64,000 nt of DNA, from positions 338,814-402,813 of the forward strand of contig JAKLDG010000001.1 in NCBI GenBank assembly GCA_022703645.1, given 5' to 3'. A program made the translations under genes and the position numbers. The notes beneath the pieces were generated by a model that was not told the origin of the DNA, did no database searches, and saw only the letters and a program-made list of their open reading frames with translations. Below are positions 5,307 through 57,534 of this stretch, piece by piece. Positions within the stretch are counted from its first letter, which is position 1. The number at the start of each line of letters is the position of its first letter. Origin of the DNA: Patescibacteria group bacterium (lineage in GTDB: Bacteria > Patescibacteriota > JACPGU01).

Positions 5307-6152
5307 TTATTTTAGTCTGCCGATATCTTCTACTGCCTTTTTGAATAAATCTACTAAGTTTGGATAATCTAGGTGATTCAAAACCTCTCCTTCTTCCACC
5401 CATTTAATTTCTTTAATATGAGCTTCCGGATTAATTATAGTATTTACCTGAGTAGTTCGTATAAGATAGAAGTGCACGCTTTTTTTGATAACCTCTTCGC
5501 CGCTTTTATCAGTAAATTTAATTTCGCCAACTTCACCAAGAATTTCAGCCTCAGTTATACCTGTTTCTTCTTGAATTTCTCTTACAGCTGCTTCTTGCCA
5601 AGTTTCTCCTTCTTCAACTTTACCTTTTGGAAAAGTCCATTTATCATAAGGGTTTTTGACAATTATAAAAAAGTTTTTCCCATTTTCTACGCGGTATATT
5701 ATTCCACCAGCGCTAATTATCAAGTTTTCTTCTTCATACTTACTACTTGCGCGGTAAATTGTTCCCAATACACCATTAATGAACTTACCACTGTTTTCTC
5801 CGCCAAATTCCTTACCAAGCTCCACAGCCTCATTAATAACCGCTTTTGGAGGCACTTCTGCATCATAAATCAACTCATAAATACCAATTCGCAATATAGA
5901 GCGGTCAATAGTGGCAATCTGTTCAAGAGGCCATTCGGGAGCAGTCTTTTTGATTAAGTCATTGATCTCTGATATTTTTTCCACCGTTCCTTTTATAATC
6001 TTACGGCAAAATTCCTCATCAACCTTAAAACCGGAATTTTCAATATTCCGTTTTAAAATTTCAGCAATATCTCTTTCTTCATCAAAATCCCACTCGTAAA
6101 GAGATTGTAAAACAACCATTCTTGACTGATGTCTAATAGATAGGTGAGACAT
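5307..6152 (-). CDS. nusB: NusB antitermination factor fused to a C-terminal Nudix hydrolase domain
   Basis: N-terminal 135 aa match NusB (VDRSILRIGIYEL..., INEAVELGKEFGG, FINGVL). The C-terminal 140 aa carry the Nudix box GKVEEGETWQEAAVREIQEETG. Confidence 0.85.
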   Translation of the reverse strand: MSHLSIRHQSRMVVLQSLYEWDFDEERDIAEILKRNIENSGFKVDEEFCRKIIKGTVEKISEINDLIKKTAPEWPLEQIATIDRSILRIGIYELIYDAEVPPKAVINEAVELGKEFGGENSGKFINGVLGTIYRASSKYEEENLIISAGGIIYRVENGKNFFIIVKNPYDKWTFPKGKVEEGETWQEAAVREIQEETGITEAEILGEVGEIKFTDKSGEEVIKKSVHFYLIRTTQVNTIINPEAHIKEIKWVEEGEVLNHLDYPNLVDLFKKAVEDIGRLK

Positions 6153-6578: not shown

Positions 6579-7145
6579 CTAAGCTCTTTTTGCAATATTC
6601 TTAGGGTTATTCATATCCCGACCCCACGTTGATGGATTTGATTCTATATAAGAATAAATTTCATCGTAAGATTTTTCATTGCGGATAATGTGTTCATAAT
6701 AGTTGCGTTGCCAGATACGATTTTCAAATGGTATTAATATATTTTGTTTAACCCCATCAATGCATTTTTTCGTTGTTAGTGATTTAAAACGTTGAATTAT
6801 TTGCGGCAATGACAGTTGTTTTTCTGTAGGGGCAAACCCCCGTGTTTGCCCGTTTTTAATTGGGCGGACACAGGGGTCCGCCCCTACGATACAGATAATC
6901 AAATGTATATGATTTGGCATAACAGAAAATATATCTACCTCGATATTTGAATAATACTTTGGGATTTCTTCTATCGTTTGGAAAATTATTATCCCAATAT
7001 CATTCAATCTCATCCCTCCATCAACAATTTCTCCGAACAAACACCCTCTATCTTGTGTACATATTGTAATAAAATAATCTCCGGGTTCGGAATAATCATA
7101 ACCTTTTATTCGTATTGACCTTCTGTTTTTGTTTTCTTTTTACAT
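6579..7145 (-). mobile_element. IS200-like Y1 HuH transposase of the REP-associated (RAYT) type, probably inactivated
   Basis: NHIHLII HuH motif and C-terminal YY catalytic region. The N-terminus (YDYSEPGDYFITICT...LFGEIVDG) matches its paralog at 20.9 kb. The ancestral ATG (7145-7143) is followed immediately by an in-frame TAA; the intact ORF only restarts at TTG 7040. A 66-bp GC-rich palindromic element sits in frame at 6824-6889. Confidence 0.65.
6824..6889. repeat. REPIN-like GC-rich palindromic element (two inverted REP hairpins with GTAG-containing termini), in frame inside the RAYT gene
   Basis: CTGTAGGGGC-[gggcaaac/gtttgccc hairpin]-gtttttaatt-[gggcggac/gtccgccc hairpin]-GCCCCTACGA. 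Far GC-richer than the flanks. On the minus strand it encodes VGADPCVRPIKNGQTRGFAPT. Confidence 0.7.
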
Positions 7146-7160
7146 TAGAACAATTGAGAA

Positions 7161-10070
7161 CTATCTCACAAAATTTACCAATCGATTTTTGACGTAAATT
7201 ATTTTTTTATAGTTTGTTGAAATTTCCTTGAATTTCTCCGTATCTTGAATGACTTTCAATGCGTCTTCCTCGCTCGCATCAAAAGGCATCAGAATATTAC
7301 CGCGGTGTTTGCCGTTTTCTTGAATTACTATTTCAATCATATCTTCTTTTATTTTTTCCGGGTCGTGTTTTGGCCAAGTAAATTTTCCGCTAAAAATACT
7401 TTCTTCAAATCCGAATTGTTGCCAGATTTCCTCCGCGATATGAGGGCAAATAGGAGATAGAAGCAGAATCAAAACCATGTATGGCTGCGGGTAATTATAT
7501 AACAGATCTTTTTTGCTAATTAAAAAGTTGGTAAATTCCATTAATGTCGATACGAGAGTGTTTAAGTGCAGGCGATCCAGATCTTCATTAAATTTCTTGA
7601 TTGTTTTATGTGTCATCACTTCCAGTTCCGTTTCTCCAATTTCAAAAGAATCGGTAATTATTTTTGCCGGATCTTTTTCTTCAACCCGAGGCGCAATTTC
7701 TTGGCCAAGATTCCAGACTTTATTTAGAAATCTCGAAACACCCTCTATTCCTTGGCTGCTCCATGCCGCATCTTGCTCGAAAGGACCGATGAACATTTCA
7801 TAAGCGCGGGCGGTATCAGCACCGTATTTTTCGACAATTTCATTCGGGTTTACTACATTTCCAAGGGATTTACTCATCTTTTTCCCATCTTCTGCTAATA
7901 TCATTCCATGATTAATTCTTTTGGCATAAGGCTCAGAAGTTGGCACAAGCCCAAGATCATGAAAGAAAATATTCCAAAATCTAGAATAAAGCAGATGAAG
8001 CGTGGTATGTTCCGGTCCGCCCTCGTAAATATCCACCGGCATCCAATATTTCAACTTTTCAAAATCAGCGAACTGTTTGTCATTATGAGGATCGATGTAG
8101 CGCAAGAAATACCATGACGAACCTGCCCAGTTCGGCATAGTATCTGTCTCTCTTACAGCAGGTCCATTGCACTTTGGGCAAGTCGTATTTACCCAGTCTG
8201 TAATCTTTGCAAGAGGGGATTGCCCGTCCTCGGTTGGTTCGTAATTTTCCACTTCAGGCAATAGCACAGGCAATTGATCTTCCGGTACAGCAACTTCACC
8301 GCAATTAGGACAATATACAATTGGGATAGGCTCGCCCCAATAATGTTGGCGTGAAAATATCCAGTCGCGCAGATGGTAGGTGGTTATAAAATCACCAAGC
8401 TTCTCATCTTTTAATTTTTGGGTAATCTTTTTTCGAGCTTCCTCAGAGCTTAATCCGGTAAAATCTTGCGAATTGATTAGTACACCATCTCTGGTATACG
8501 CCGGGATTTTCGCGCTCATTTTTTCCTGCCAGATGCCAACCTCGGCATGCGTCATATTAGCATAATTCAATTGCGATTCATCAAGCCAAATCACATCGTG
8601 GTCATCTTTTTCTTTTTGCGAAATATCTTCTTGTGTGTGGTCGACTAATTCAAATAGCACAGCAGTGGTATAAGAAATTCGATTTAAATCTTTGTGATTA
8701 GCAAAATACTCGGTTCGCGTTTGACCGAAAAGAACCCTGTCTAATTTTAAGTTTGTAAACCCAGTTTCTTCGGCAACTTCTCTTTTTGCAGCAGTTACCA
8801 CGTCTTCGCCTTCTTCAATGCCACCCATTGGAAAAGTCGTCCAATCAAAGTTTTTCCATTTAAGTCCAAGATATTTTCCAGTTTTTGGATCGCGAACTAT
8901 GGCATGAATATTTTTTCTTTCAACGGTCTTTTTACCCTCAACTGGCGGGTTTCTTTCATCAATAATATTTGGTACGACTACTTCTTCGATTTTAATTCCA
9001 TATTTAACGGCAAAAGCATAGTCGCGTGTATCGTGAGCGGGAACTGCCATGATAGCGCCTGTACCATAATCTGCAAGCACATAATCAGCAACCCAGACCT
9101 CTACTTTGCGTCCATTTATAGGGTTTATAGCAGTAATACCTTCTAATTTTACGCCCGTCTTTTCCTTATCCTCAACCATTCTTTCAATATTTGACTTTTT
9201 CTTTGATTCATTAATGTATTCCTTGACCTCTTCTAAATTCGAGATTCTATCTTCTAAATTCTTTATGTATCCCGATTCCGGTGCCAAGACAATATATGTA
9301 CAACCAAACAACGTGTCTACCCTAGTAGTGAAAACCTTTATACTAGATTCTAAATTCTTTATTCTAAATTCTATTTCGCTTCCTTCAGATTTTCCTATCC
9401 AGTTTTCCTGCATGAGTTTTACTCTTTCCGGATAATCAACATTTTTTAGCCCTTCGAGTAACTTATCTGCATAAGCTGTAATACGCAACATCCATTGATC
9501 AAGTTCTTTTTTACTTGCGGCAGTTCCGCATCTTTCACATTTTTCATCGATTACTTCTTCATTGGCTAGCCCTATTTTGCAGCTTGGACACCAGTTAATC
9601 GCCATTTTCTTTTTGTAAGCAAGGCCATTTTCATAAAATTTTAGAAAAAACCACTGTGTCCATTCGTAATAAGCCGGATCAGTAGTATCGATTTCGCGAG
9701 ACCAATCAAAAGAATAACCAAGACTTTTTTGTTGTTTCGTAAAATTTGCAATGTTTTGAGCGGTAGCAACCGACGGGTGGATTTTATGCTTTATTGCGTA
9801 GTTTTCAGTGGGCAGACCAAAAGCGTCCCATCCAACCGGAAGCATCACGTTGTAACCCTCGAGCCTTTTCTTGCGCGCAATAATATCAGAAGTAGTCTGA
9901 CCTCGAAGATGCCCCATATGCAGACCATCTCCGGATGGATAATTGAACTCAAACAACATATAGAACTTTGGTTTTTTATCAAAGTCTTTCGCATGATATA
10001 GATCGGGAATCTTTTCCCAGATATCCTGCCATTTTTTTTCGATTTCGTGAGGATTGTAGTTGGTTGACAT
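7161..10070 (-). CDS. leuS: leucyl-tRNA synthetase with an inserted Nudix hydrolase domain
   Basis: HMGH and KMSKS class-I motifs, CP1 editing-domain signatures (TTRVDTLFG, AHDTRDYAF), LeuRS-like termini. About aa 383-515 carry a Nudix box, GGIEEGEDVVTAAKREVAEETG. Confidence 0.9.
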   Translation of the reverse strand: MSTNYNPHEIEKKWQDIWEKIPDLYHAKDFDKKPKFYMLFEFNYPSGDGLHMGHLRGQTTSDIIARKKRLEGYNVMLPVGWDAFGLPTENYAIKHKIHPSVATAQNIANFTKQQKSLGYSFDWSREIDTTDPAYYEWTQWFFLKFYENGLAYKKKMAINWCPSCKIGLANEEVIDEKCERCGTAASKKELDQWMLRITAYADKLLEGLKNVDYPERVKLMQENWIGKSEGSEIEFRIKNLESSIKVFTTRVDTLFGCTYIVLAPESGYIKNLEDRISNLEEVKEYINESKKKSNIERMVEDKEKTGVKLEGITAINPINGRKVEVWVADYVLADYGTGAIMAVPAHDTRDYAFAVKYGIKIEEVVVPNIIDERNPPVEGKKTVERKNIHAIVRDPKTGKYLGLKWKNFDWTTFPMGGIEEGEDVVTAAKREVAEETGFTNLKLDRVLFGQTRTEYFANHKDLNRISYTTAVLFELVDHTQEDISQKEKDDHDVIWLDESQLNYANMTHAEVGIWQEKMSAKIPAYTRDGVLINSQDFTGLSSEEARKKITQKLKDEKLGDFITTYHLRDWIFSRQHYWGEPIPIVYCPNCGEVAVPEDQLPVLLPEVENYEPTEDGQSPLAKITDWVNTTCPKCNGPAVRETDTMPNWAGSSWYFLRYIDPHNDKQFADFEKLKYWMPVDIYEGGPEHTTLHLLYSRFWNIFFHDLGLVPTSEPYAKRINHGMILAEDGKKMSKSLGNVVNPNEIVEKYGADTARAYEMFIGPFEQDAAWSSQGIEGVSRFLNKVWNLGQEIAPRVEEKDPAKIITDSFEIGETELEVMTHKTIKKFNEDLDRLHLNTLVSTLMEFTNFLISKKDLLYNYPQPYMVLILLLSPICPHIAEEIWQQFGFEESIFSGKFTWPKHDPEKIKEDMIEIVIQENGKHRGNILMPFDASEEDALKVIQDTEKFKEISTNYKKIIYVKNRLVNFVR

Positions 10071-10109: not shown

Positions 10110-10197
10110 AATATCCAATACTCAATATCCAATATCCAATCAATAACCAATAAATTAAATATCCAATTGGGTATTGGGTGTTGGATATTGGTCATTC
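10110..10197. repeat. array of CCAATA/TATTGG palindromic repeats (ATATCCAAT ... ATTGGATAT) in the leuS upstream region
   Basis: Direct and inverted ATATCCAAT units. Shares the 17-mer GGATATTGGTCATTSSA with the sites at 15.8 kb and 61.25 kb. Confidence 0.6.
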
Positions 10198-10483: not shown

Positions 10484-10613
10484 AAATATTAATTAATTTT
10501 CAATTTTACAATTCTCAATTTCCAATCAATTCTCAATGATTCAATTTCTAAATGCTATCGCAAAGCGATACCTACAATGAAAATTGCAAAATTGAGAATT
10601 GAAAATTTCCTTA

Positions 10614-46500: not shown

Positions 46501-49500
46501 ATGATTGTGGTAAAGAAAAAGAAAATACCTTTAAGACCGTTTTTAATCCTCTTAGTGTTAATAGCTGGGTTTACTTTGAGTTTGGGTTTAAAACCAAATG
46601 AAAAAATAAAAGCGGCTTATTCTAATCCTTGCAAGACAGCTGGCACGTATGCTGGTTATGTAGTTGACGCGAATCTTAATGTTATTATTCCGGCTTACAA
46701 TAATGCTGTGTTTGGTGACACTTTCTATGATAGTACCAGCAAAGAAATTCATTGTAAAAGCATAACGATAGAAACGGGAGCGACTTTAGATATATCGCCA
46801 AAAACTACCGGTGCAAGTAAAACAGGCGGCACAAATTATAGAAGATTGGTTCTTGATGGTGATTTGAATATCGCAAGCGGTGGAACGCTAAATCTATATG
46901 GCGGCAATATATATAATACCGGCGGACTCAATGGCACTGGGATAACAAATGATGGAAAAGGATATGGTATGAATGTTATGGTTGGTGGAAATGTTTTGGT
47001 TGAATCCGGCGGATGGATATCAGCTGATGGCAAAGGGTATGAACATAGTAAGGGGCCGGGAGCAGGTGTGGCTGAACCCGGTTCACAAGGCGCTGCATAT
47101 GGTGGGGCTGGTCCGGATGGAACCAATTGTTATGGGAAATATTACGGTTCGGTTTCTGACCCGATAGAACTCGGCAGCGGCAGTAGTTTGGGAGTAGGAG
47201 GCGGAGTAGTTGATATAACTGCCGCGGGAACAATATTAATTCGCGGCGTAGGCAAAATTACGGCAAACAGCATTGGAGAGGGATCGGGCGGTTCAGTAAG
47301 ACTCAGCGCCAATACTATTAGTAGTACAATTGACGGCGTAAATATACCTTCTATTACAGCAAATGGCGGTAGTGGGTCTTATTACAGTGGCGGCGGCAGA
47401 ATCGCGCTTTTTTATAATTCATCAAATTTTGGCGGTGATATCAAAGCTATTGCTAACGCCTATGGAGGAGCTGGCACTGTATTCAAGAAAAAAAATATCG
47501 AGGCTTATGGTGATTTAATTATTACAAATAATTATCAGGATCATACCGATAACCCTCCGGACTATACTCCATATGCATATACAAAAATTGGCAAAACAAA
47601 AATCGATTCTGGCACATATAAGAATATCACAGTTAATAAAAGAGCAAACGCTATTATTGAATCTAGTAATATAGTAAACATCAATGGTGGTACTTTTGAA
47701 GTAAATAATTCCAAACTTGAAAATAAAGGCACTTTAGCTTCACAGACTTCCGCAGAAAAATTTCTGGCGAAAAATACCGCTCGGATACTTAATAGCGGTA
47801 CAGGGTTATTTAGCCTGTCCGCGAACTCAAACGCTATATTTGACGGCATAGACACTTATTTTGAGAACCAAAATAATATTATCCAAAATTTCGCCAATTT
47901 AACTATCTCTAACGGGGCTGTCATGAGCCATGCCGTCAATGATGCTACCGGTGTGACAAATTGTCTTAGGAATTCAATTGATAATCCAGTTGGCGGCGCG
48001 ATCCCTCCTTGCGAATATAAGGATTGGGGTGATGGCTATGGGAAACATTGGAATCAAAAATATACCTTAAGGATAAATGCCACAAGTGTTAATATTGATA
48101 ACAAAAGTTCGATAGATGTTTCACAAAAGGGATTTCAAACATTACCTGGAACATCAGGTTTTGGGCCGGGAGGGTCAAGTACGGCTTACTCAATCGGTGG
48201 TTACGCGGGAGGTTCTTATGGTGGCAGAGGTGGTAACGATAATACTGGGGGAGTAAGCGCAGATATTTATGGCGACTCGGATGGAGACCTGAATAATCCA
48301 AATGATCTGGGAAGCAGCGGTGATACCGGCTATACTGCCGGAGGATTAGTAAGAATAACAGTTTTGGGCGATATTGTTAATAATGGCTCTATATTATCAA
48401 ATTCAGGTACGGTTTCAAATGGTTTTGCCGGTGGGTCAGGAGGAGGCATAAGATTGGATGCAGACCGGATTCTCGGAGCTGGAAAAATTTCTGCCAACGG
48501 CATGCCCGGAACGATAGATCTTGCGAAAGGCGGCGGAGGAGGCGGAAGGATCGCGATCACATACAAAACCACAAAAGATTTTTATGGTCCAATTACCGCT
48601 TATGGAGGGTCTACTGATGGGGGACCCGGTACGATACTTTTTGCAAACAATAGCTCGGGAGCCTTAATTGATAAAGAACTTGTTATTTCTAATTCAGTTT
48701 TAAACGACAATCCAACCAAAATAGGAGGCGGTACGTATAAAAATATTACCGTAAAGAATACCTCGCCAACTCTTACTGACCTGACTTTAGCCGCAATCGT
48801 TTCTGGACAATCCGTTGTCATGCAAGATGGTGGGAATTTTGAAGTTAACCAAACTAATTTAACTAATAGCGGAACTATTTCTTTATTAGCCGGAACGTCA
48901 AATTTAGTTATAAAGGGAAAATCAAATTTTATTAATATCGGACCTACCGCCTCTCCTGGCATTAACGCGAATAGTACTTCTAAAGTTATTTTGGACAATG
49001 CCAATTTTGAAAATAAGAATAATATTGAACAGAATTTTGGCAATCTTTATATCCAGAATGGAGCAATATTAACGCATACTCAAAATGATTACTTAACGGT
49101 AAATTGCGTGAATACTTCCTGTACCAACCAAGACCTGGGTGATGGCAATGGAATGCATTACAATCAGGCTTATACATTAAGAATACATGCAAACAATGCT
49201 TTAATTGATAAATTTAGCGCTATTAATGTTGATGGCAAGGGCTATGACATGGGTAGAGGACCGGGTAATAATGGGTCTGCTAATTCTGCCGGAAGTTATG
49301 GCGGAGCTGCGTCAAGCGGCGACAGTACCTATGGTTTAGCGGATAACCCTAATGATTTGGGCAGTGGAGGTTATTCCGGTAGTTATGGTGATAATACCGG
49401 CGGCGGTTTAGTAAGAGTTAGGGCAGACGGTAATATAACAGTTGATGGCTTTATTTCTTCGGATACAACATCTGCCGGATCTTTTGACGGCGCTTCAGGA

Positions 49501-52500
49501 GGCGGTATAAAATTAATAGCAAATAGTATTCTTGGCTCCGGTTCTATTTCCGCTAGTTCTAATTTGACAAGCGGGAATATTGGCGGAGGTGGCAGAATAT
49601 CTCTCATAGCTACGCAAAAAAATTACAGCGGCACCGTCTCTGTGAATAGAGGTGGAACTGGAGCGAATTACGGTACTATTTATGATTCTCTGGCTATCCC
49701 TACGACTTATGGTCCGAGCGCAACACCATTAACTTATAATACAAAATTAAGTAATAATACTCCATATATAAAAGCCGATAGTTCAGCAACAACGATAGGT
49801 GTTGATGAAGGCAATGCAGTTAGCACTGGATATACTCCAGATTCTGATACCTCACTTCTTTTGAAAATGGATAACTGGGGAGATGGTCTTATTTATGATT
49901 CTTCCGCAAAATCAATACCTGTTATTAAATATGGCACAACTTCCTTCTCTGATACTGTTTTGAAAACTGGAACGCATTCACTATTATTTAATGGTTCCAC
50001 AGGTCGTTTAATACCTGATGGTACTTTTACATCAAATTTCCAGTATGGCACCGGAGCTTTTACTATTGATACTTGGATTTATCCAAAATCTGTTACGACA
50101 CTTCAAACAATTTATTCTCAAAAAAATAGCGCGACACCAACAACTAATGCATCATCATTACAAATTACTACTACCGGTCAGCTAAAATATACTGAAAATG
50201 GAGTTTCTATTATTTCTCCTGTCAGTACTATAAAACTAGGCAGTGATGTCGGATGGCAACATGTTGCTTTAGTTAGAGATAATTTAGGGGTTGAAAGATT
50301 ATTTTATAATGGTTCCGTAGTAGGAACACAGTCGTCTACATACTCCAAATTCAGCGATGTCGGTATCGGATGTTTATACCAGTCTACTAATACATTATTT
50401 TATAATGGCTATATGGATGAGTTCCGTATCAGTAAAGGAGTGGCGCGCTGGACCTCTGATTTTATTCCATTATCTGATGATGGCAACTGGGAAAAATTAA
50501 ATTTGAGAGCAACAAGGACTAACCCTAGCTCCGATACTAAGCTTTTGCTTCATCTCGATGGAACAAATGGATCAACTACCTATACTGACAGTTCTCCTTC
50601 AAACCATACAATATTGCGTTACAACACACCAACAATTTCCACTAACACTAGTAAATTTGGCGGCGCGTCAGGCGCTTTCCCGAGAGTAACCTCTCCATAC
50701 TTTGATTATATTTATGCTAATGATAATGTTAATGATTGGACTTTTGGCGCGGGTGATTTTACGATAGATTTTTGGGCTAACTTTTCAGATAATGTCAGGC
50801 AAGGTGTTCTTGCCATCGGCTCCGGCGCTTATGCTCCAATTGCTTTTGAAGTAGTAAGCAACAATCTTAACGTCTACATGACTAGTAATGGTAGCAGTTG
50901 GGATATCGCTAGCGGTCAACCAGTTGGCCAAACATTTGGTCCGGTAACACCAGGCGTTTGGGTACATTATGCGCTAACAAGGAATGGAAATACTTTTTAT
51001 CTTTTTGTTAATGGTACTACTGTAAACTCTTTTATGTCATCATTAAGTTTATGGAATAATAGCGGCGCTTTATATATAGGGCAATATTTTGGGTCTGTTA
51101 CAGCCTTTAAGGGCTATCTGGATGAATTTAGAATTATAAAGGGAAGAGCGGCTTGGAGTAATAATTTTACTCCTTCTACAACTCCCTATGAAATTTATGA
51201 TGACCCGTCTTTCAATGGAACGGTAGATATTGGCATAATAGATAATCTTGCAGGTGAATATGTTTTTTCCGGCTGCAACGGAGCGAACTGTACTTTTTCA
51301 GATTCAAAAGTTACAGCGAGATTCATAAATGGTATTGCTAATTTAGCAGTAAAAGTAAAAGACAAAAGAGATGGGCAGATAAAGCATCACGGTTTTTCAG
51401 GGCTAAAAATTAACTCCGTTTCAAATGTATCTTATATAAATAATAATCAAATAACCGGAGCTATCGAAATTCAAGATAGAACCCCAGAAAGATCAATACC
51501 ATCAGGTCCTGCCCCCGCAGGAAGTATTACTAAAGGAACTGCTGGCGCTACTATTTTTCCAATGGGAGCCGGTTTTAGTATTATAAATAATTCCAAAGGA
51601 ACCAGTCAGAGCCAACAAGATTTGGGTGGTAATTTAGTGGTTCGAGGTCCATTAGCATCCGCGCCATATCGTCTTTACCTTGATAAAAACATAATGTATA
51701 AAAGAGGTGATTATTTGAATAGCGACGGAACTATTAGCAGCGTGGCAACAGATTATCAAGTGGTTTGTGTTAATACAGCGGACTATACCCAAACAAAAAT
51801 AAGATGTAATGATGATCTGAGCACCAGCGCTATTCCATCAGGATTGCGAAATTATGGTATATATACATTTAATAAAACTTATAATTTCTATACCCAGAAC
51901 GAAACCTCTAATTATTCAGCGCCTTCAATATCTCAAGTTCTTATACCAGCTAGCAACCCAACTGTGCCTGTTATTTCTCCTTTAACAATAACTCCGACTA
52001 ACGGAAAATTAAATCTCAGCTGGAATAATCCAATTGATAATATCGGGCAAACAAAAACTTTGATCGTTAGAGGTATCGATAGTATTCCTACTTTCGTTCC
52101 AAGTGATGGGACGGATTATAATACCTGGTCAAATACTACTGTAACCGGAGAAGAGATGATCTATGACAGCACTAATGTCGGGGCGGGAAGTGAAGTAAAA
52201 AACTTTGACGATGCCAATGTATTTTTTGGAACCAGATACTGCTATACAATCTATGCTCAATATATTGGTTATATTTATTCGGTAGGGACTTCTGCTTGCA
52301 GCACTCTAACATCAATTATTGATCCGCCAGTCAACCCAACTATCACGATTCAAGGAATGATGATAAATATCGGATGGACAGCGCCACCTTCCGGCAATCC
52401 TGATAATTACCTGATTGTTAGAAAAAAAGGCACAACAGAACCAAACTGGAATCCAACCGGGGAAACTGCTGACTATAATATTGGTGATACGGTTGGCGAT

Positions 52501-55500
52501 GGTGTTGTTGTCTGTAAAGGATTTTCATGCACTGATCAAAATGTAAATGTAAATACTTTGCCAACCCAGTATTATTATAAAATTTATGCTCAGTATGGAA
52601 CCGCGGCTCCCTTCAGTTATTCTGTCGGTTCAACGGCAGTAAGCGGAAATCCTAACCCGGAAAACCCCCAAAAGTTTGATAATACCAATGAAGCAACACC
52701 AAGTGTAACACTGGACAATCTATCAGGACCTTACACGCCTCTTAATACATTTAAGATTGCAAATTATCTTGTCTGGAAAGCAACAACTCCGGCTGATTGC
52801 TCAGGGGCTTGGACGCCAACCAATGGAGCTGACTATTCAGGAGTGCAAGGAACTGGAAATATCATTTACAAAAACCCAGCAGCGCCAATATCATATATTG
52901 ATACTGCAGTTACAAATGGCGTTGGTTATTGTTACAAAATCTTTGTCCAATATAATGGTGAAACAATCAATACTACTGATCTAATGTATTCTTCTGGATT
53001 AAGTCTTTGGACTCAACCGCCAAATCATAATCCAACAATTAGCGTAAATAGCATCACCCAAACGATCGGCACGGATAATGTGGTAATTAACTTTAATGTA
53101 AATGATATTGATCCATCTGATAATGGCAAGCTTTCTGTTGGCTTTGCTGTTACAAATCCGGTTTCAGGATGCAGTATTAGCACTTTAACCGGACCAATAA
53201 CTAACCTCGGTGTCGGAGCTCATAGCGTTACTTGGACCGCCACTACCACTAATGGAACCGCGGGGGATTGTCCAGGCGTAGAAATGTTAGCCGGTTCTGC
53301 TCAACTGACAGCCACTGTTTCCGATTTTATCGGAGCCACCGGTACCGCTAGTCCAACTTTCTCTCTTGACACCAAAGCTCCCATTGCAAGTTCCAGCCTT
53401 ATTTTGTCCTCCAAAAACAGCAACTCCATTACTGTCGCTACCGGAGCTACCGGGGCTACTGATGGAAACATAAAAACTACCGCTGCCTATAAAGTCTATT
53501 ACAAGCAAGGATCAACGGTAGACGAAGTAAGCGGTACGCAAATACTACCAAATATTAATAGTTATGTTGCGGGACAGATATTTACTGCTTCCTCGCTAAT
53601 AACTAACCAGCAATATTCATTTAATATCTGGGCTTATGATAACTATGGACATAAAACTGCTGCTACGGTATTAAATGTCAGCACAAAAGGAAAATCTGTT
53701 ACAGGATTTACAGCTATAGTTCAAGGTATGAGAGTCCATCTGAGTTGGGACGCAATGCTGCCGGCGCCAGATAAGCATCTGGTTATTCGTAAGAAAGGAA
53801 CATCCGCGTCTACTTGGACGCCAACAGATGGTATTGGAATATATGCTGCTGGCAACACGGTAGATGCAGATACGATAGTAGTTTACCATGGCACAGGCGT
53901 CACTCTGGATGATGATGCAGTTGATGGAGCAGCCTATACCTATACTATCTTTGCCAACTATTCTGGAAATCTATATTCAGAGGGGGTTTCAGCTCCATCG
54001 ATAACACCGAATGCTCTGAACGCGTCGTTATCTGCTCCTGCCTATATACCAAATGGATCAAATTATGATATCGCACTCAACTGGGTAGCCCCCACACCAA
54101 GTTACAGTTTACAAAAATATGTAGTAGTTAGAGAAGTTGGGTCTCCTACTTGTTTAATCGAATGGACGCCAACCAAGGATAATAACTATAATGCATTAGA
54201 TCCAACCGGCTTTACTAATGAAGAAATTATCTATTCCGGAACCGGAACCACTACTACTGATAATATGGGAGGAACGGGAGTTTCTTCTGGTACAAATGTT
54301 TGCTATAAGATCTTTACTCAATATCTGGGAGATGATTTAGCGGTTCCAACAAACTTAGTTTATTCCGCTGGAATTGCCGCTACCTATGTACCGCCAAATC
54401 TGCCTCCAGAGATAGAGATTGGTTCAGTCACAGCGCTACAAACTACCGGAACTGAAAATATTGTTATAGCTTACCGTGTTAGAGATTCCGACTCAACCAA
54501 TTTGAATATTACATTTAGCATGATTGATCCGGGAGGCTCCACTTGCCAAATGAATTTAACTGATAATTTGGCGGGGATTGATGGCACTTACTATACTCAT
54601 ACCGCTACTTGGAATGCAGGGCTGGCAGGAGAGTGCCCGGGATTTGAAGTAACAAATGCTGTTATCCAAGTAACTGCCAGCGATAGTCTTAATTCTGTTT
54701 CGCAAAACTCCGCTCCATTTCTGCTTGATACTCTATCCCCAAGGCTTCCAACTCCAACTGTTTCTAACTTTAATTTAACTAATTTTTCATCAACAGGAGA
54801 TAAGATATTCTTCAATCTAGGATCTAATTCAACAACTGATACTAATGCGCTTAACTACAAGATATACTATGCTTCTGGGGGAAGTGTTGATGAAACAGGA
54901 ATACTCATAACAGGAGCTCCTATAGCATTTACTCCTGGAGCTGCATATTCGGTAACCGGATTAACACCGGGACAAAACTATACATTTAATATTTGGGCTT
55001 ATGATAAATATGGGCATAAAACTTCTGCGACTTCCGTAACATATTCAACTATTGTGCCTGCTCCGGCAAGCTTCTCTGTAACTCCGCATGGAATGAGATT
55101 ATCACTTACTTGGACGGCTCCTGTCGGTGGAACCCCAGACTATTATCTGATAGTTAGAAAAGCTAATTCAGATCCAATAATAGCTCCCGCTAATGGTTCT
55201 ACATACAACCTGGGGGATATTTTGAGCGGGGGAATGGTAGTCTACAATTCAACCGGGACAAGCCTTGACGATGATAATATTGATGACGGTCCTTACTATT
55301 ACCGAATTTATGCGCATTATTCAAATGGCAATTTCTCACCAGCCTTGGCTGGCAATGCGATTGCAGTGGCGGAAGGACCAAATACATTCAGCGCAACCTC
55401 AAGCCCAGCGCCAGTAGTCACATACATAGACACTCCACCAACAAATAATTTCAGTTTCGAGAACTATCTTATTTGGAAGAAAGAACAACCTAGCTGTACT

Positions 55501-57534
55501 ACTGATGGCAATCTGGTAGACGGTACGGTATATAATTATCTTGATTCAGTAGATGGGGGAACGATTATTTATAAATCAAACATTGATCCTAATGGTATGT
55601 CTGATATCTCAACTACAATAACTGGCCATACTTACTGCTACAAGATGTTCGTAGAGTATAATGGAGAAACTACTAATACTATCTATTCTAATGAAATGTA
55701 CTTTCAAATCACTCCTCCAAATAATCCTCCGACTCTTTCCGCTCTTTCTGTTGTTCAAACAATAGGTAGTGACGATGTTGTAATCGGATTTACTATTAAT
55801 GATCCGGATGGAATTGACGCTGGCAATCTCTCAGTCGCTTTATCAATTGTTAACCCTCCAGAAGGATGCAGTATCGGTACAATATCTGGTTCTTTGACTG
55901 GTTTATCAAATGGTAGTTATTCGGTTACTTGGACTGATGCCGATACTACTTGCCCTGGGCTTGAATTATCTAATGCTGGTTTAGAGTTTATTGCTCACGA
56001 CCTGATAGATTATTCATCTGCGCAGATAAGCAGTTTTTTACTCGACACTAAAGCGCCTACACTAATAGAGGGGCTAACATATGACCCACCAACCGCAGAT
56101 ACTATTGTAGTACGCCTAAGCACCAATACATTCTTCTTAAATCCTTTGAGTGTTGATCAAAATCTAAAAGGAGGAGGAAATAGCTTTAAGATTTACTACA
56201 AACAAGACAGTACCGTTTCAGAATCCGATACACAATTAGCTGCCTTTGATAATTATATCTTAGGGCAAGACTATACGGCCACACCATTAGGATCTAATTC
56301 ACAATATTCATTTAATATCTGGGCTTATGATAACTATGGACATAAGACAGCATATACTGATCCAGTCAAGCCAACTACCAGCGGTCTCAACGGACCACCA
56401 GTAGTACAATATGTTGCTCAACCAGTCCAAGCTGCTGGTACTGGTAATATCAATTTCAGTTTTGAAGTAAAAGATCCAGACTCGGATGGTTTAACTATCA
56501 CATTCTCACTAATTAATAATCCAGTCGGTTGCAGTATCTCTGGCGTTACTGGGTTTACCAATCCTGTATCCTCCACCAGTACTTTTGCAACAATTATCTC
56601 CAGCTGGAATGCGAAATTAACTTGTGATGGAGCGGATCAGTCTGACCTCAAGATCAGAATTAGCGCGGATGATGGAAACGGACATACAGCAACTATTGAT
56701 TCAGATCCATTTACTATCGATACGAAAAATCCTGTCTCTCCAGGAAACCTATCATTCCCAGCAGGAACTACTTTTGCGAATCAGGTTAGTGTAAAGACAA
56801 ATACTATTTCCGGTAGCGATACTAATGCCGATGATTGGCATGTATATAGGGTTGATGGAAATACTTTCCCAACGGATCCATTCTCTCCTGCTCTAACTCC
56901 AATTAAATTATATGATCCTTATATACCAGATGACGTATTTATTGATTCGGGGTTAACGCCAGATTCTGATTATACTTATAATATCTGCCTGCATGATACT
57001 TTTATGAACTTTACCTGCGCAACATCGCAAACTATTCATACACCAGCTTCAATATTAAGCTTTAATATTCTTGGTATTGCCAGTGGAATATCGGTTGGAG
57101 TTGAAACAACTAATATCACTACTACTTCTACAACAATTCCTTTTGGCAGTACTACAGTAGGGGATACAAAGGTTGGAGCGCTTGATCTACAAGGCACAAC
57201 AAATCTGGTTAATGGATATACTATTGATATCAGACAAGACCAAGATTTAACATCAGGAGGCAACACTATTCCTGCCCTTACCTCTACTAACGCTAGTCCG
57301 CAAGTATGGCCACCAACTCCAATTAGTTCTTTCTTTGGATATTCATCAATCAATCTTTCCAGATTTTCAAATGGCGTTAATTGGGCAGGATTAACTTTGT
57401 CTGACCTACCGATAGTAACACAGATAAACGGGACTCATGATGATGATGTTTTATTCAAATTATCCACCAAGAGTCCTCAACCAGCAGGAACTTATCAAAA
57501 CACCATTACTTTCTCAATAATGGCGAATCCGTAG
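46501..57534 (+). CDS. giant surface/adhesin-like protein (3677 aa): signal-anchor, Gly-rich beta-helix-like repeats, two LamG (Laminin_G_3) domains, tandem Ig/FN3-like modules
   Basis: Single uninterrupted ORF. N-terminal TM; duplicated ~400-aa Gly-rich module; LamG motifs (LLLHLDGTNGSTTYTDSS ... DFTIDFWANF; AFTIDTWIYP); four ~120-aa modules plus three FN3-like modules ending ...NIWAYD.YGHKT. Confidence 0.7.
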   Translation: MIVVKKKKIPLRPFLILLVLIAGFTLSLGLKPNEKIKAAYSNPCKTAGTYAGYVVDANLNVIIPAYNNAVFGDTFYDSTSKEIHCKSITIETGATLDISPKTTGASKTGGTNYRRLVLDGDLNIASGGTLNLYGGNIYNTGGLNGTGITNDGKGYGMNVMVGGNVLVESGGWISADGKGYEHSKGPGAGVAEPGSQGAAYGGAGPDGTNCYGKYYGSVSDPIELGSGSSLGVGGGVVDITAAGTILIRGVGKITANSIGEGSGGSVRLSANTISSTIDGVNIPSITANGGSGSYYSGGGRIALFYNSSNFGGDIKAIANAYGGAGTVFKKKNIEAYGDLIITNNYQDHTDNPPDYTPYAYTKIGKTKIDSGTYKNITVNKRANAIIESSNIVNINGGTFEVNNSKLENKGTLASQTSAEKFLAKNTARILNSGTGLFSLSANSNAIFDGIDTYFENQNNIIQNFANLTISNGAVMSHAVNDATGVTNCLRNSIDNPVGGAIPPCEYKDWGDGYGKHWNQKYTLRINATSVNIDNKSSIDVSQKGFQTLPGTSGFGPGGSSTAYSIGGYAGGSYGGRGGNDNTGGVSADIYGDSDGDLNNPNDLGSSGDTGYTAGGLVRITVLGDIVNNGSILSNSGTVSNGFAGGSGGGIRLDADRILGAGKISANGMPGTIDLAKGGGGGGRIAITYKTTKDFYGPITAYGGSTDGGPGTILFANNSSGALIDKELVISNSVLNDNPTKIGGGTYKNITVKNTSPTLTDLTLAAIVSGQSVVMQDGGNFEVNQTNLTNSGTISLLAGTSNLVIKGKSNFINIGPTASPGINANSTSKVILDNANFENKNNIEQNFGNLYIQNGAILTHTQNDYLTVNCVNTSCTNQDLGDGNGMHYNQAYTLRIHANNALIDKFSAINVDGKGYDMGRGPGNNGSANSAGSYGGAASSGDSTYGLADNPNDLGSGGYSGSYGDNTGGGLVRVRADGNITVDGFISSDTTSAGSFDGASGGGIKLIANSILGSGSISASSNLTSGNIGGGGRISLIATQKNYSGTVSVNRGGTGANYGTIYDSLAIPTTYGPSATPLTYNTKLSNNTPYIKADSSATTIGVDEGNAVSTGYTPDSDTSLLLKMDNWGDGLIYDSSAKSIPVIKYGTTSFSDTVLKTGTHSLLFNGSTGRLIPDGTFTSNFQYGTGAFTIDTWIYPKSVTTLQTIYSQKNSATPTTNASSLQITTTGQLKYTENGVSIISPVSTIKLGSDVGWQHVALVRDNLGVERLFYNGSVVGTQSSTYSKFSDVGIGCLYQSTNTLFYNGYMDEFRISKGVARWTSDFIPLSDDGNWEKLNLRATRTNPSSDTKLLLHLDGTNGSTTYTDSSPSNHTILRYNTPTISTNTSKFGGASGAFPRVTSPYFDYIYANDNVNDWTFGAGDFTIDFWANFSDNVRQGVLAIGSGAYAPIAFEVVSNNLNVYMTSNGSSWDIASGQPVGQTFGPVTPGVWVHYALTRNGNTFYLFVNGTTVNSFMSSLSLWNNSGALYIGQYFGSVTAFKGYLDEFRIIKGRAAWSNNFTPSTTPYEIYDDPSFNGTVDIGIIDNLAGEYVFSGCNGANCTFSDSKVTARFINGIANLAVKVKDKRDGQIKHHGFSGLKINSVSNVSYINNNQITGAIEIQDRTPERSIPSGPAPAGSITKGTAGATIFPMGAGFSIINNSKGTSQSQQDLGGNLVVRGPLASAPYRLYLDKNIMYKRGDYLNSDGTISSVATDYQVVCVNTADYTQTKIRCNDDLSTSAIPSGLRNYGIYTFNKTYNFYTQNETSNYSAPSISQVLIPASNPTVPVISPLTITPTNGKLNLSWNNPIDNIGQTKTLIVRGIDSIPTFVPSDGTDYNTWSNTTVTGEEMIYDSTNVGAGSEVKNFDDANVFFGTRYCYTIYAQYIGYIYSVGTSACSTLTSIIDPPVNPTITIQGMMINIGWTAPPSGNPDNYLIVRKKGTTEPNWNPTGETADYNIGDTVGDGVVVCKGFSCTDQNVNVNTLPTQYYYKIYAQYGTAAPFSYSVGSTAVSGNPNPENPQKFDNTNEATPSVTLDNLSGPYTPLNTFKIANYLVWKATTPADCSGAWTPTNGADYSGVQGTGNIIYKNPAAPISYIDTAVTNGVGYCYKIFVQYNGETINTTDLMYSSGLSLWTQPPNHNPTISVNSITQTIGTDNVVINFNVNDIDPSDNGKLSVGFAVTNPVSGCSISTLTGPITNLGVGAHSVTWTATTTNGTAGDCPGVEMLAGSAQLTATVSDFIGATGTASPTFSLDTKAPIASSSLILSSKNSNSITVATGATGATDGNIKTTAAYKVYYKQGSTVDEVSGTQILPNINSYVAGQIFTASSLITNQQYSFNIWAYDNYGHKTAATVLNVSTKGKSVTGFTAIVQGMRVHLSWDAMLPAPDKHLVIRKKGTSASTWTPTDGIGIYAAGNTVDADTIVVYHGTGVTLDDDAVDGAAYTYTIFANYSGNLYSEGVSAPSITPNALNASLSAPAYIPNGSNYDIALNWVAPTPSYSLQKYVVVREVGSPTCLIEWTPTKDNNYNALDPTGFTNEEIIYSGTGTTTTDNMGGTGVSSGTNVCYKIFTQYLGDDLAVPTNLVYSAGIAATYVPPNLPPEIEIGSVTALQTTGTENIVIAYRVRDSDSTNLNITFSMIDPGGSTCQMNLTDNLAGIDGTYYTHTATWNAGLAGECPGFEVTNAVIQVTASDSLNSVSQNSAPFLLDTLSPRLPTPTVSNFNLTNFSSTGDKIFFNLGSNSTTDTNALNYKIYYASGGSVDETGILITGAPIAFTPGAAYSVTGLTPGQNYTFNIWAYDKYGHKTSATSVTYSTIVPAPASFSVTPHGMRLSLTWTAPVGGTPDYYLIVRKANSDPIIAPANGSTYNLGDILSGGMVVYNSTGTSLDDDNIDDGPYYYRIYAHYSNGNFSPALAGNAIAVAEGPNTFSATSSPAPVVTYIDTPPTNNFSFENYLIWKKEQPSCTTDGNLVDGTVYNYLDSVDGGTIIYKSNIDPNGMSDISTTITGHTYCYKMFVEYNGETTNTIYSNEMYFQITPPNNPPTLSALSVVQTIGSDDVVIGFTINDPDGIDAGNLSVALSIVNPPEGCSIGTISGSLTGLSNGSYSVTWTDADTTCPGLELSNAGLEFIAHDLIDYSSAQISSFLLDTKAPTLIEGLTYDPPTADTIVVRLSTNTFFLNPLSVDQNLKGGGNSFKIYYKQDSTVSESDTQLAAFDNYILGQDYTATPLGSNSQYSFNIWAYDNYGHKTAYTDPVKPTTSGLNGPPVVQYVAQPVQAAGTGNINFSFEVKDPDSDGLTITFSLINNPVGCSISGVTGFTNPVSSTSTFATIISSWNAKLTCDGADQSDLKIRISADDGNGHTATIDSDPFTIDTKNPVSPGNLSFPAGTTFANQVSVKTNTISGSDTNADDWHVYRVDGNTFPTDPFSPALTPIKLYDPYIPDDVFIDSGLTPDSDYTYNICLHDTFMNFTCATSQTIHTPASILSFNILGIASGISVGVETTNITTTSTTIPFGSTTVGDTKVGALDLQGTTNLVNGYTIDIRQDQDLTSGGNTIPALTSTNASPQVWPPTPISSFFGYSSINLSRFSNGVNWAGLTLSDLPIVTQINGTHDDDVLFKLSTKSPQPAGTYQNTITFSIMANP

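Follow-up and report, generated by a model that had tools for sequence, protein, structure and literature searches.

A Nudix module inserted into the CP1 editing domain of a patescibacterial leucyl-tRNA synthetase

The gene leuS, on the minus strand of a 64,000-nucleotide stretch of a Patescibacteria group bacterium genome (contig JAKLDG010000001.1, positions 338,814 to 402,813; this whole stretch is referred to below as the window), almost certainly encodes a normal bacterial leucyl-tRNA synthetase (LeuRS) that has kept its synthetic and editing sites intact and carries a Nudix module of 158 amino acids in a loop at the surface of CP1, the mobile editing domain. The product had initially been annotated as a LeuRS of 969 amino acids, and the open reading frame (ORF) and the family model TIGR00396 (leuS_bact) agree on this. 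The protein matches TIGR00396 in two stretches, one on either side of the insert, with 972.5 bits (cut-off 548.4), and is collinear with the LeuRS of Thermus thermophilus (1h3n) in a phmmer search (E=6e-221). NCBI holds an identical protein (P0121), from a Patescibacteria metagenome-assembled genome with an 867-kb contig, under the label 'class I tRNA ligase family protein'. The parts of the host enzyme lie as follows.

7161..10070, minus strand: leuS, bacterial-type LeuRS with Nudix insert, complete, 969 amino acids (ORF; TIGR00396)
9909..9920, minus strand: HIGH-type signature HMGH of the class I catalytic core, residues 51-54 (translation)
8976..9407, minus strand: CP1 editing domain, N-terminal part, residues 222-365 (PF13603)
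9312-9329, minus strand: T-rich motif TTRVDT, residues 248-253 (translation)
9030-9038, minus strand: AHD motif, residues 345-347 (translation)
8376..8501, minus strand: CP1 editing domain, C-terminal part, residues 524-565, resuming 3' of the insert (alignment to T. thermophilus LeuRS)
7866..7880, minus strand: KMSKS loop, residues 731-735 (translation)

Residues H51, G53 and H54 of the catalytic signature are invariant in 91 aligned LeuRS, as are T253, H346, D347, R349 and D350 of the editing site. The editing-domain profile PF13603 scores 207.7 bits, with residues 222-371 covering profile positions 1-146 of 185. In these alignments the CP1 editing site of the window enzyme looks intact. The HIGH and KMSKS signatures, the ZN1 cysteines, the T-rich and AHD motifs of CP1, and the anticodon-binding and C-terminal domains are all shared with the LeuRS of T. 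thermophilus (1H3N/2BYT) and Escherichia coli (4AQ7/4ARC).

Alignment to the T. thermophilus enzyme gave three blocks, in which residues 4-365, 524-727 and 731-968 of the window protein correspond to residues 3-362, 376-580 and 637-875 respectively. Approximately 158 residues (366-523) stand in place of a loop of about 13 residues (T. thermophilus 363-375) within CP1, and the same boundaries were obtained with three close LeuRS that have no Nudix domain (P0124, P0148 and P0167). The Pfam editing-domain model is broken at about position 146 of its 185, and some 40 residues of CP1 (524-565) follow the insert. The initial annotation had placed a Nudix domain of about 130 residues at positions 8526-8924 (residues 383-515), after the editing-domain signatures of CP1. 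That span does contain the Nudix box and does lie downstream of the TTRVDT and AHD motifs; the module itself is 158 residues long and sits inside the CP1 editing domain, not past it. Its features are these.

8502..8975, minus strand: inserted Nudix module, residues 366-523, consisting of an N-terminal beta-strand extension, the Nudix fold and a C-terminal helix (alignments)
8757..8825, minus strand: canonical Nudix box GGIEEGEDVVTAAKREVAEETGF, residues 416-438 (translation)
8706..8708, minus strand: Y455, an aromatic residue 17 positions past the box, at the X-loop / Ap4A-hydrolase signature position (alignment)
8679..8696, minus strand: subfamily motif HKDLNR, residues 459-464, consensus [HP]KxxNR (alignment)

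Residues 407-506 match the Pfam NUDIX model PF00293 with 46.9 bits (gathering cut-off 21.1; E=3.6e-12), which is far beyond chance. The box GGIEEGEDVVTAAKREVAEETGF fits the pattern G-x5-E-x7-REUxEExGU exactly. Among 88 homologues, the box residues G416, G417, E422, R430, E431, E435 and G437 never vary, and 87 have E434. Conservation extends outside the box to R385, K460, N463, R464 and W495, which are also invariant, and to W410, F413, H459 and E487, which like E434 are nearly so (H459 in 87 of the 88). When the module was modelled alone from a 34-sequence alignment, the mean predicted local distance difference test score (pLDDT) was 93.8 and the predicted template modelling score 0.87; the predicted structure is an alpha/beta/alpha sandwich with the strand and helix order of a Nudix fold, together with a short N-terminal strand and the C-terminal helix. 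In the full-length model (mean pLDDT 90.1) the insert and both junctions score 90-96 and there is no low-confidence linker, which suggests that the predicted Nudix domain is a firmly attached lobe on LeuRS. The complete Nudix fold and canonical box that had been read from the sequence are thus borne out by the hidden Markov model (HMM) match, the motif, the predicted fold, the clean insert boundaries and the conservation; the segment gave a significant Nudix hit and did not align to a LeuRS-specific insertion.

The LeuRS of Thermus and E. coli have a leucine-specific domain, which is not universal and does not define the family. In the T. thermophilus enzyme it occupies residues 581-636, ahead of KMSKS; it is absent from the window LeuRS, where residues 727 and 731 align with T. 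thermophilus 580 and 637. Nor does any of the 91 aligned relatives have it, Nudix-bearing or not; the two features are therefore unrelated. The possibility that the Nudix module stands in for a lost leucine-specific domain was rejected, since relatives without Nudix lack that domain too. One of the close Nudix-less LeuRS, P0124 (824 amino acids), is 74% identical to the window protein, but over 46% of its length only. Its CP1 is divergent (VVGVPGHD), perhaps because CP1 was swapped or the insert was secondarily lost.

With a mean pairwise identity of 0.51, the insert is intermediate between the editing domain (0.60) and the part comprising the anticodon-binding and C-terminal domains (0.40). 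Its constraint thus equals that of genuine LeuRS domains, and purifying selection acts on it as on a working domain. The alternative of an artefact, through chimeric assembly or through insertion of a mobile or intein-like element, has in its favour only an IS200-like ORF 120 bp downstream of leuS. The insert is in frame and has a GC content of 0.38-0.40, as in the remaining gene, so that comparison of the insert with the rest of the gene gave no compositional trace of recent transfer. No intein or endonuclease motifs were found in it, and its junctions are shared by 77 of 80 independent species genomes and by 115 of 120 homologues. This cross-genome conservation refutes an artefact, to which we give practically no credence.

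To see how far the architecture extends, LeuRS of related genomes were surveyed, as the initial annotation had proposed. A PF00293 domain is present in 115 of the 120 best LeuRS matches (45-70% identity), and 113 of these closest 120 have a canonical Nudix box. The fusion counts come from a query with the whole protein; an insert-sized query returned only proteins shorter than about 450 amino acids (fragments). Scanning one genome per species with two peptide patterns detected the module in 153 species genomes, which is a lower bound, given that only two narrow patterns and a narrower alignment were used. At 77 of the 80 loci kept, it lies inside a LeuRS-like frame of 550-1300 amino acids. The taxa named are lineages of Paceibacterota/Parcubacteria (Yanofsky-, Yonath-, Kaiser-, Vogel-, Taylorii- and Moranii-bacteria) and Kerfeldbacteria. 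When 1.84 billion cluster representatives were searched with the module, 186 matches were obtained at E<1e-10. Among the best 150 of these 186, clustered at 50% identity, 105 (70%) are LeuRS, and the remainder are mostly free-standing proteins of 155-190 amino acids. The fragment closest to the insert, P0002, was left out as uninformative, since it comes from a contig of 0.5x coverage whose genes are broken.

Some LeuRS have two or three Nudix copies, all of them in CP1. A second insertion site lies in another CP1 loop, directly past the first strand of the editing domain, and some copies are in tandem. Two subtypes can be distinguished by the motif downstream of the box. Copies with HKxxNR have the canonical box; in those with PKxxNR the box carries E7->Q and R15->A, with the three metal-binding glutamates kept. 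Some Patescibacteria LeuRS (P0177, P0197, P0204, P0224 and P0244), which reach 1143-1336 amino acids, contain an alpha/beta-hydrolase domain (PF06821/PF12697) besides the Nudix domain, and P0195 has a PF04480 domain as well.

Judged by sequence, the module is a distinct Nudix subfamily, because it matches characterised enzymes only at the box and falls far below the cut-offs of the RppH models. Its features are an N-terminal P...R strand, a W-x2-F-x2-GG segment leading into the canonical box, the aromatic residue at +17 and the [HP]KxxNR motif, the last of which is common to free-standing and synthetase-embedded copies. The subfamily was also found in a class II enzyme, prolyl-tRNA synthetase (ProRS), where it separates the anticodon-binding domain from the C-terminal domain and has both the [HP]KxxNR motif and the N-terminal extension. 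Five such sequences were obtained.

P0342 and P0389-P0392; L086 3720-5744: ProRS-Nudix sequences

The nearest relatives of these ProRS that lack Nudix are annotated as Nanoarchaeota or Woesearchaeota, and the hosts are likely DPANN archaea. Three of the five ProRS inserts are without E7 and R15 of the box.

Free-standing copies were observed 2 bp upstream of a Nudix-bearing leuS (one case), 30 bp downstream of cysS (one case), near pth, and adjoining sua5/tsaC. From this distribution, the subfamily is tied to aminoacyl-tRNA synthetases (aaRS). Its recurrent recruitment into both aaRS classes argues for a substrate that belongs to aaRS chemistry in general or to tRNA, and against a role specific to leucine. 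It is possible, though we hold this with less than even confidence, that a dedicated 'synthetase-associated' Nudix subfamily works in cis with both aaRS classes, in ultra-small bacteria of the candidate phyla radiation (CPR) and in DPANN archaea, either as a built-in site that disposes of adenylate-derived products (Ap4A-type alarmones or aminoacyl-adenylates) or as an enzyme whose target is the 5' end of the tRNA bound by the synthetase.

The surroundings of some copies fit a different interpretation, namely generic nucleotide house-cleaning, for example of oxidised or non-canonical nucleoside triphosphates (NTPs), with fusion to LeuRS serving co-expression in a streamlined genome and entailing no mechanistic coupling. 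The gene cluster around the free-standing copy P0015 also encodes Ham1 (ITPase), two further Nudix proteins, and HAD and His-phosphatase proteins; at the ProRS-Nudix locus of L086 another Nudix gene and MazG are nearby; and the structural neighbours of the module include MutT1, NudI and NUDT15. Random fusion does not predict that the subfamily should be recruited repeatedly, at two CP1 loops, in tandem, in a ProRS of class II, and next to leuS and to cysS. Of the nearest clusters, 70% are LeuRS, and we regard house-cleaning as a decidedly unlikely explanation. The house-cleaning cluster of the free-standing copy further includes a free-standing gene (L082 6065-6631) for a PF06821 serine hydrolase, of the family co-inserted in some LeuRS, two genes away from the Nudix copy.

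To assess the class of substrate, the residues and structural neighbours of the module were compared with those of characterised Nudix enzymes. Nudix hydrolases of diadenosine tetraphosphate (Ap4A) use a Tyr or Phe at +17 to stack against the adenine (PMC2425470). The diadenosine polyphosphate subfamily is recognised by an invariant Tyr, ADP-ribose pyrophosphatases by Pro at +16, and NADH pyrophosphatases by SQPWPFPxS (PMC6856373). The +17 region belongs to the X-loop that determines specificity (PMC5389931). The window module has the aromatic residue that characterises hydrolases of Ap4A and other diadenosine polyphosphates (ApnA); among the 88 homologues, position 455 is occupied by Tyr 71 times and by Phe 17 times. 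Position 454 (+16) is Pro in none of the 88 and Glu in 73, and SQPWPFPxS does not occur in the insert. The top structural neighbour is 2azw, followed by RppH, T. thermophilus Ndx1 (an Ap6A hydrolase), DIPP/DDP1, the lupin and Caenorhabditis elegans Ap4A hydrolases, and Rv2985. The aromatic residue and the structural neighbours together point to substrates with a polyphosphate chain, which could be ApnA, NTPs or RNA 5' ends. The roles suggested in the initial annotation, in Ap4A turnover or on capped RNA, would be compatible with these features and with the recurrence of the module in other aaRS settings, which do not amount to proof.

Our preferred reading, which is tentative, assigns the module to the ApnA-hydrolase/RppH-like class, as an active Mg2+-dependent pyrophosphohydrolase whose most likely substrates are dinucleoside polyphosphates (Ap4A, Ap3A, Ap4N). 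Activity is probable because all metal-binding and catalytic residues of the box are kept in 88 homologues with a mean identity of about 51%. The step from an active Nudix enzyme to Ap4A is one that we infer. Many aaRS that form aminoacyl-adenylate without tRNA produce Ap4A. On the proposed pathway, ATP or another NTP would attack the enzyme-bound aminoacyl-adenylate to yield a dinucleoside polyphosphate by-product, and the embedded Nudix domain would cleave this by-product of its own synthetase on site. AMP and ATP would go back to the pool, which may be useful where nucleotide metabolism is minimal.

Several observations weigh against this assignment. LeuRS is not known to be among the strongest producers of Ap4A. 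E. coli RppH also has Tyr at +17, by our own reading of its sequence; this aromatic residue is therefore unable to separate ApnA from RNA 5' ends as substrates. The best structural match, 2AZW, is a free-standing MutT/nudix protein of Enterococcus faecalis from a structural-genomics entry, without known function and 18% identical to the module, and so gives no functional lead. The RppH HMMs (NF001934-NF001938) reach at best 28.5 bits, against cut-offs of 116-259, and match the box region only. A profile search against PDB sequences gave E=4e-5, likewise over the box region only, and therefore supports no functional assignment; the match to 1f3y (E about 1e-3) covers 32 residues of the box. Sequence and profile searches detected no full-length similarity to characterised Ap4A/ApnA hydrolases. 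The box is weakened in the PKxxNR copies and in three of the five ProRS inserts. Finally, translation genes are dense in these small genomes, which makes evidence from gene neighbours weak. The module is 16-22% identical to RppH/NudH (YgdP) and to the Ap4A/ApnA hydrolases of lupin (1F3Y/1JKN), C. elegans (1KTG), human (NUDT2), T. thermophilus (Ndx1) and Chlamydia (CT771). It falls short of all family HMM cut-offs, is set apart by the [HP]KxxNR motif and the N-terminal extension, and is embedded in a synthetase, whereas those enzymes are free-standing.

Alternatively, the module could have an RppH-like pyrophosphohydrolase or decapping activity on RNA 5' ends; from its place on CP1, the domain onto which the acceptor end of the tRNA docks, it would strip tRNA(Leu) or other RNAs of a 5'-triphosphate, an NAD cap or an Np4A cap. 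The low RppH scores given above argue against such an activity. In ProRS, moreover, the module lies between the anticodon-binding and C-terminal domains and not on a domain that meets the acceptor end, and capped or 5'-triphosphate tRNA is not known for these organisms. A second Nudix domain in the window, fused to NusB, is of a different subfamily (30% identity to the LeuRS insert, without HKxxNR). On balance we consider action on RNA 5' ends unlikely, if less so than the other alternatives to dinucleoside polyphosphate hydrolysis.

It is more doubtful still that the module is non-catalytic, retaining the Nudix fold as a nucleotide sensor, a regulator, or a structural or tRNA-binding lobe. 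Non-enzymatic Nudix proteins exist (PMC5389931), the altered boxes of the PKxxNR copies (E7->Q, R15->A) and of three ProRS inserts (without E7 and R15) are what such a role might leave, and the presence of up to three copies in one LeuRS would suit binding. Yet the window copy has a fully canonical box, as do 113 of the 120 closest LeuRS, and E431 and E435 are invariant, with E434 in 87 of 88, as expected for catalysis. Nor does the module replace the leucine-specific domain, the absence of which is not linked to the presence of Nudix.

The location of the module in the editing domain also raises the question of an added site for pre-transfer proofreading, at which (non-cognate) aminoacyl-adenylates would be hydrolysed. 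Both host enzymes, LeuRS and ProRS, misactivate near-cognate amino acids, and some relatives carry an alpha/beta-hydrolase (esterase-type) insert in addition. An aminoacyl-adenylate is, however, an acyl-phosphate and not a nucleoside diphosphate linked to X, and a Nudix precedent is not known. With the post-transfer editing site of CP1 intact, an extra site is not evidently needed either, and adenylate hydrolysis seems to us very improbable.

The remainder of the window contains further features near leuS. The NusB-Nudix fusion is encoded 1 kb downstream of leuS (5307-6152, minus strand), with NusB at residues 8-134 and a C-terminal Nudix domain whose box is canonical (Pfam). A recent duplication of this domain as the source of the LeuRS insert was rejected on the divergence noted above. 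The fusion, and the gene order methyltransferase-leuS-nusB/Nudix-rnc, also occur in a relative, L057 (63% identity). The IS200/Y1-transposase-like ORF (153 amino acids; PF01797, 28.6 bits) lies between leuS and nusB-Nudix (6579-7040, minus strand) and is absent at the same position in the syntenic L057. Upstream of leuS there are two long imperfect intergenic hairpins (10110-10196 and 10495-10608), which contain short CAAT/CCAATAT-type repeats and have arms of 24-30 nucleotides that are 77-90% complementary; these may be REP-like elements or terminators. Farther away, a giant ORF of 3677 amino acids runs from 46501 to 57534 on the plus strand.

Sequences with this architecture are common in public data, where they are machine-tagged with PF00293 and annotated only as 'class I tRNA ligase family protein'. 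The initial annotation was not aware of a described LeuRS with a Nudix insertion, and our full-text literature searches, which covered papers outside subscription-only access, agree in yielding no description of a LeuRS-Nudix or other aaRS-Nudix fusion. In a comprehensive review of the Nudix clan from 2017, tRNA synthetases go unmentioned (PMC5389931), and no curated family model for LeuRS with Nudix was found. The nearest curated parallel is NF040702, 'isoleucine--tRNA ligase, N-acetyltransferase domain-containing', an 'exception' model that likewise describes a class I aaRS with an extra catalytic domain; both the host enzyme and the added domain differ from those of LeuRS-Nudix. The fusion is real and widespread, and apparently undescribed in print.

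Whether Ap4A made by aaRS is a signal or a harmful by-product is a long-standing question. The logic proposed here is that of LysRS/LysU with ApaH, YqeK, NUDT2 or HINT, in which the aaRS makes Ap4A and a dedicated hydrolase removes it; there the hydrolase is a separate protein, whereas in LeuRS it would be fused into the synthetase. A fusion between a synthetase and an ApnA-hydrolase-like Nudix domain would be a 'Rosetta-stone' link between the two, conserved over a large bacterial radiation and echoed in archaeal ProRS. If the substrate is instead an RNA or tRNA 5' end or an aminoacyl-adenylate, the module would represent a new quality-control step in translation. Either role, if true, would be a third catalytic activity of LeuRS, beside aminoacylation and post-transfer editing.

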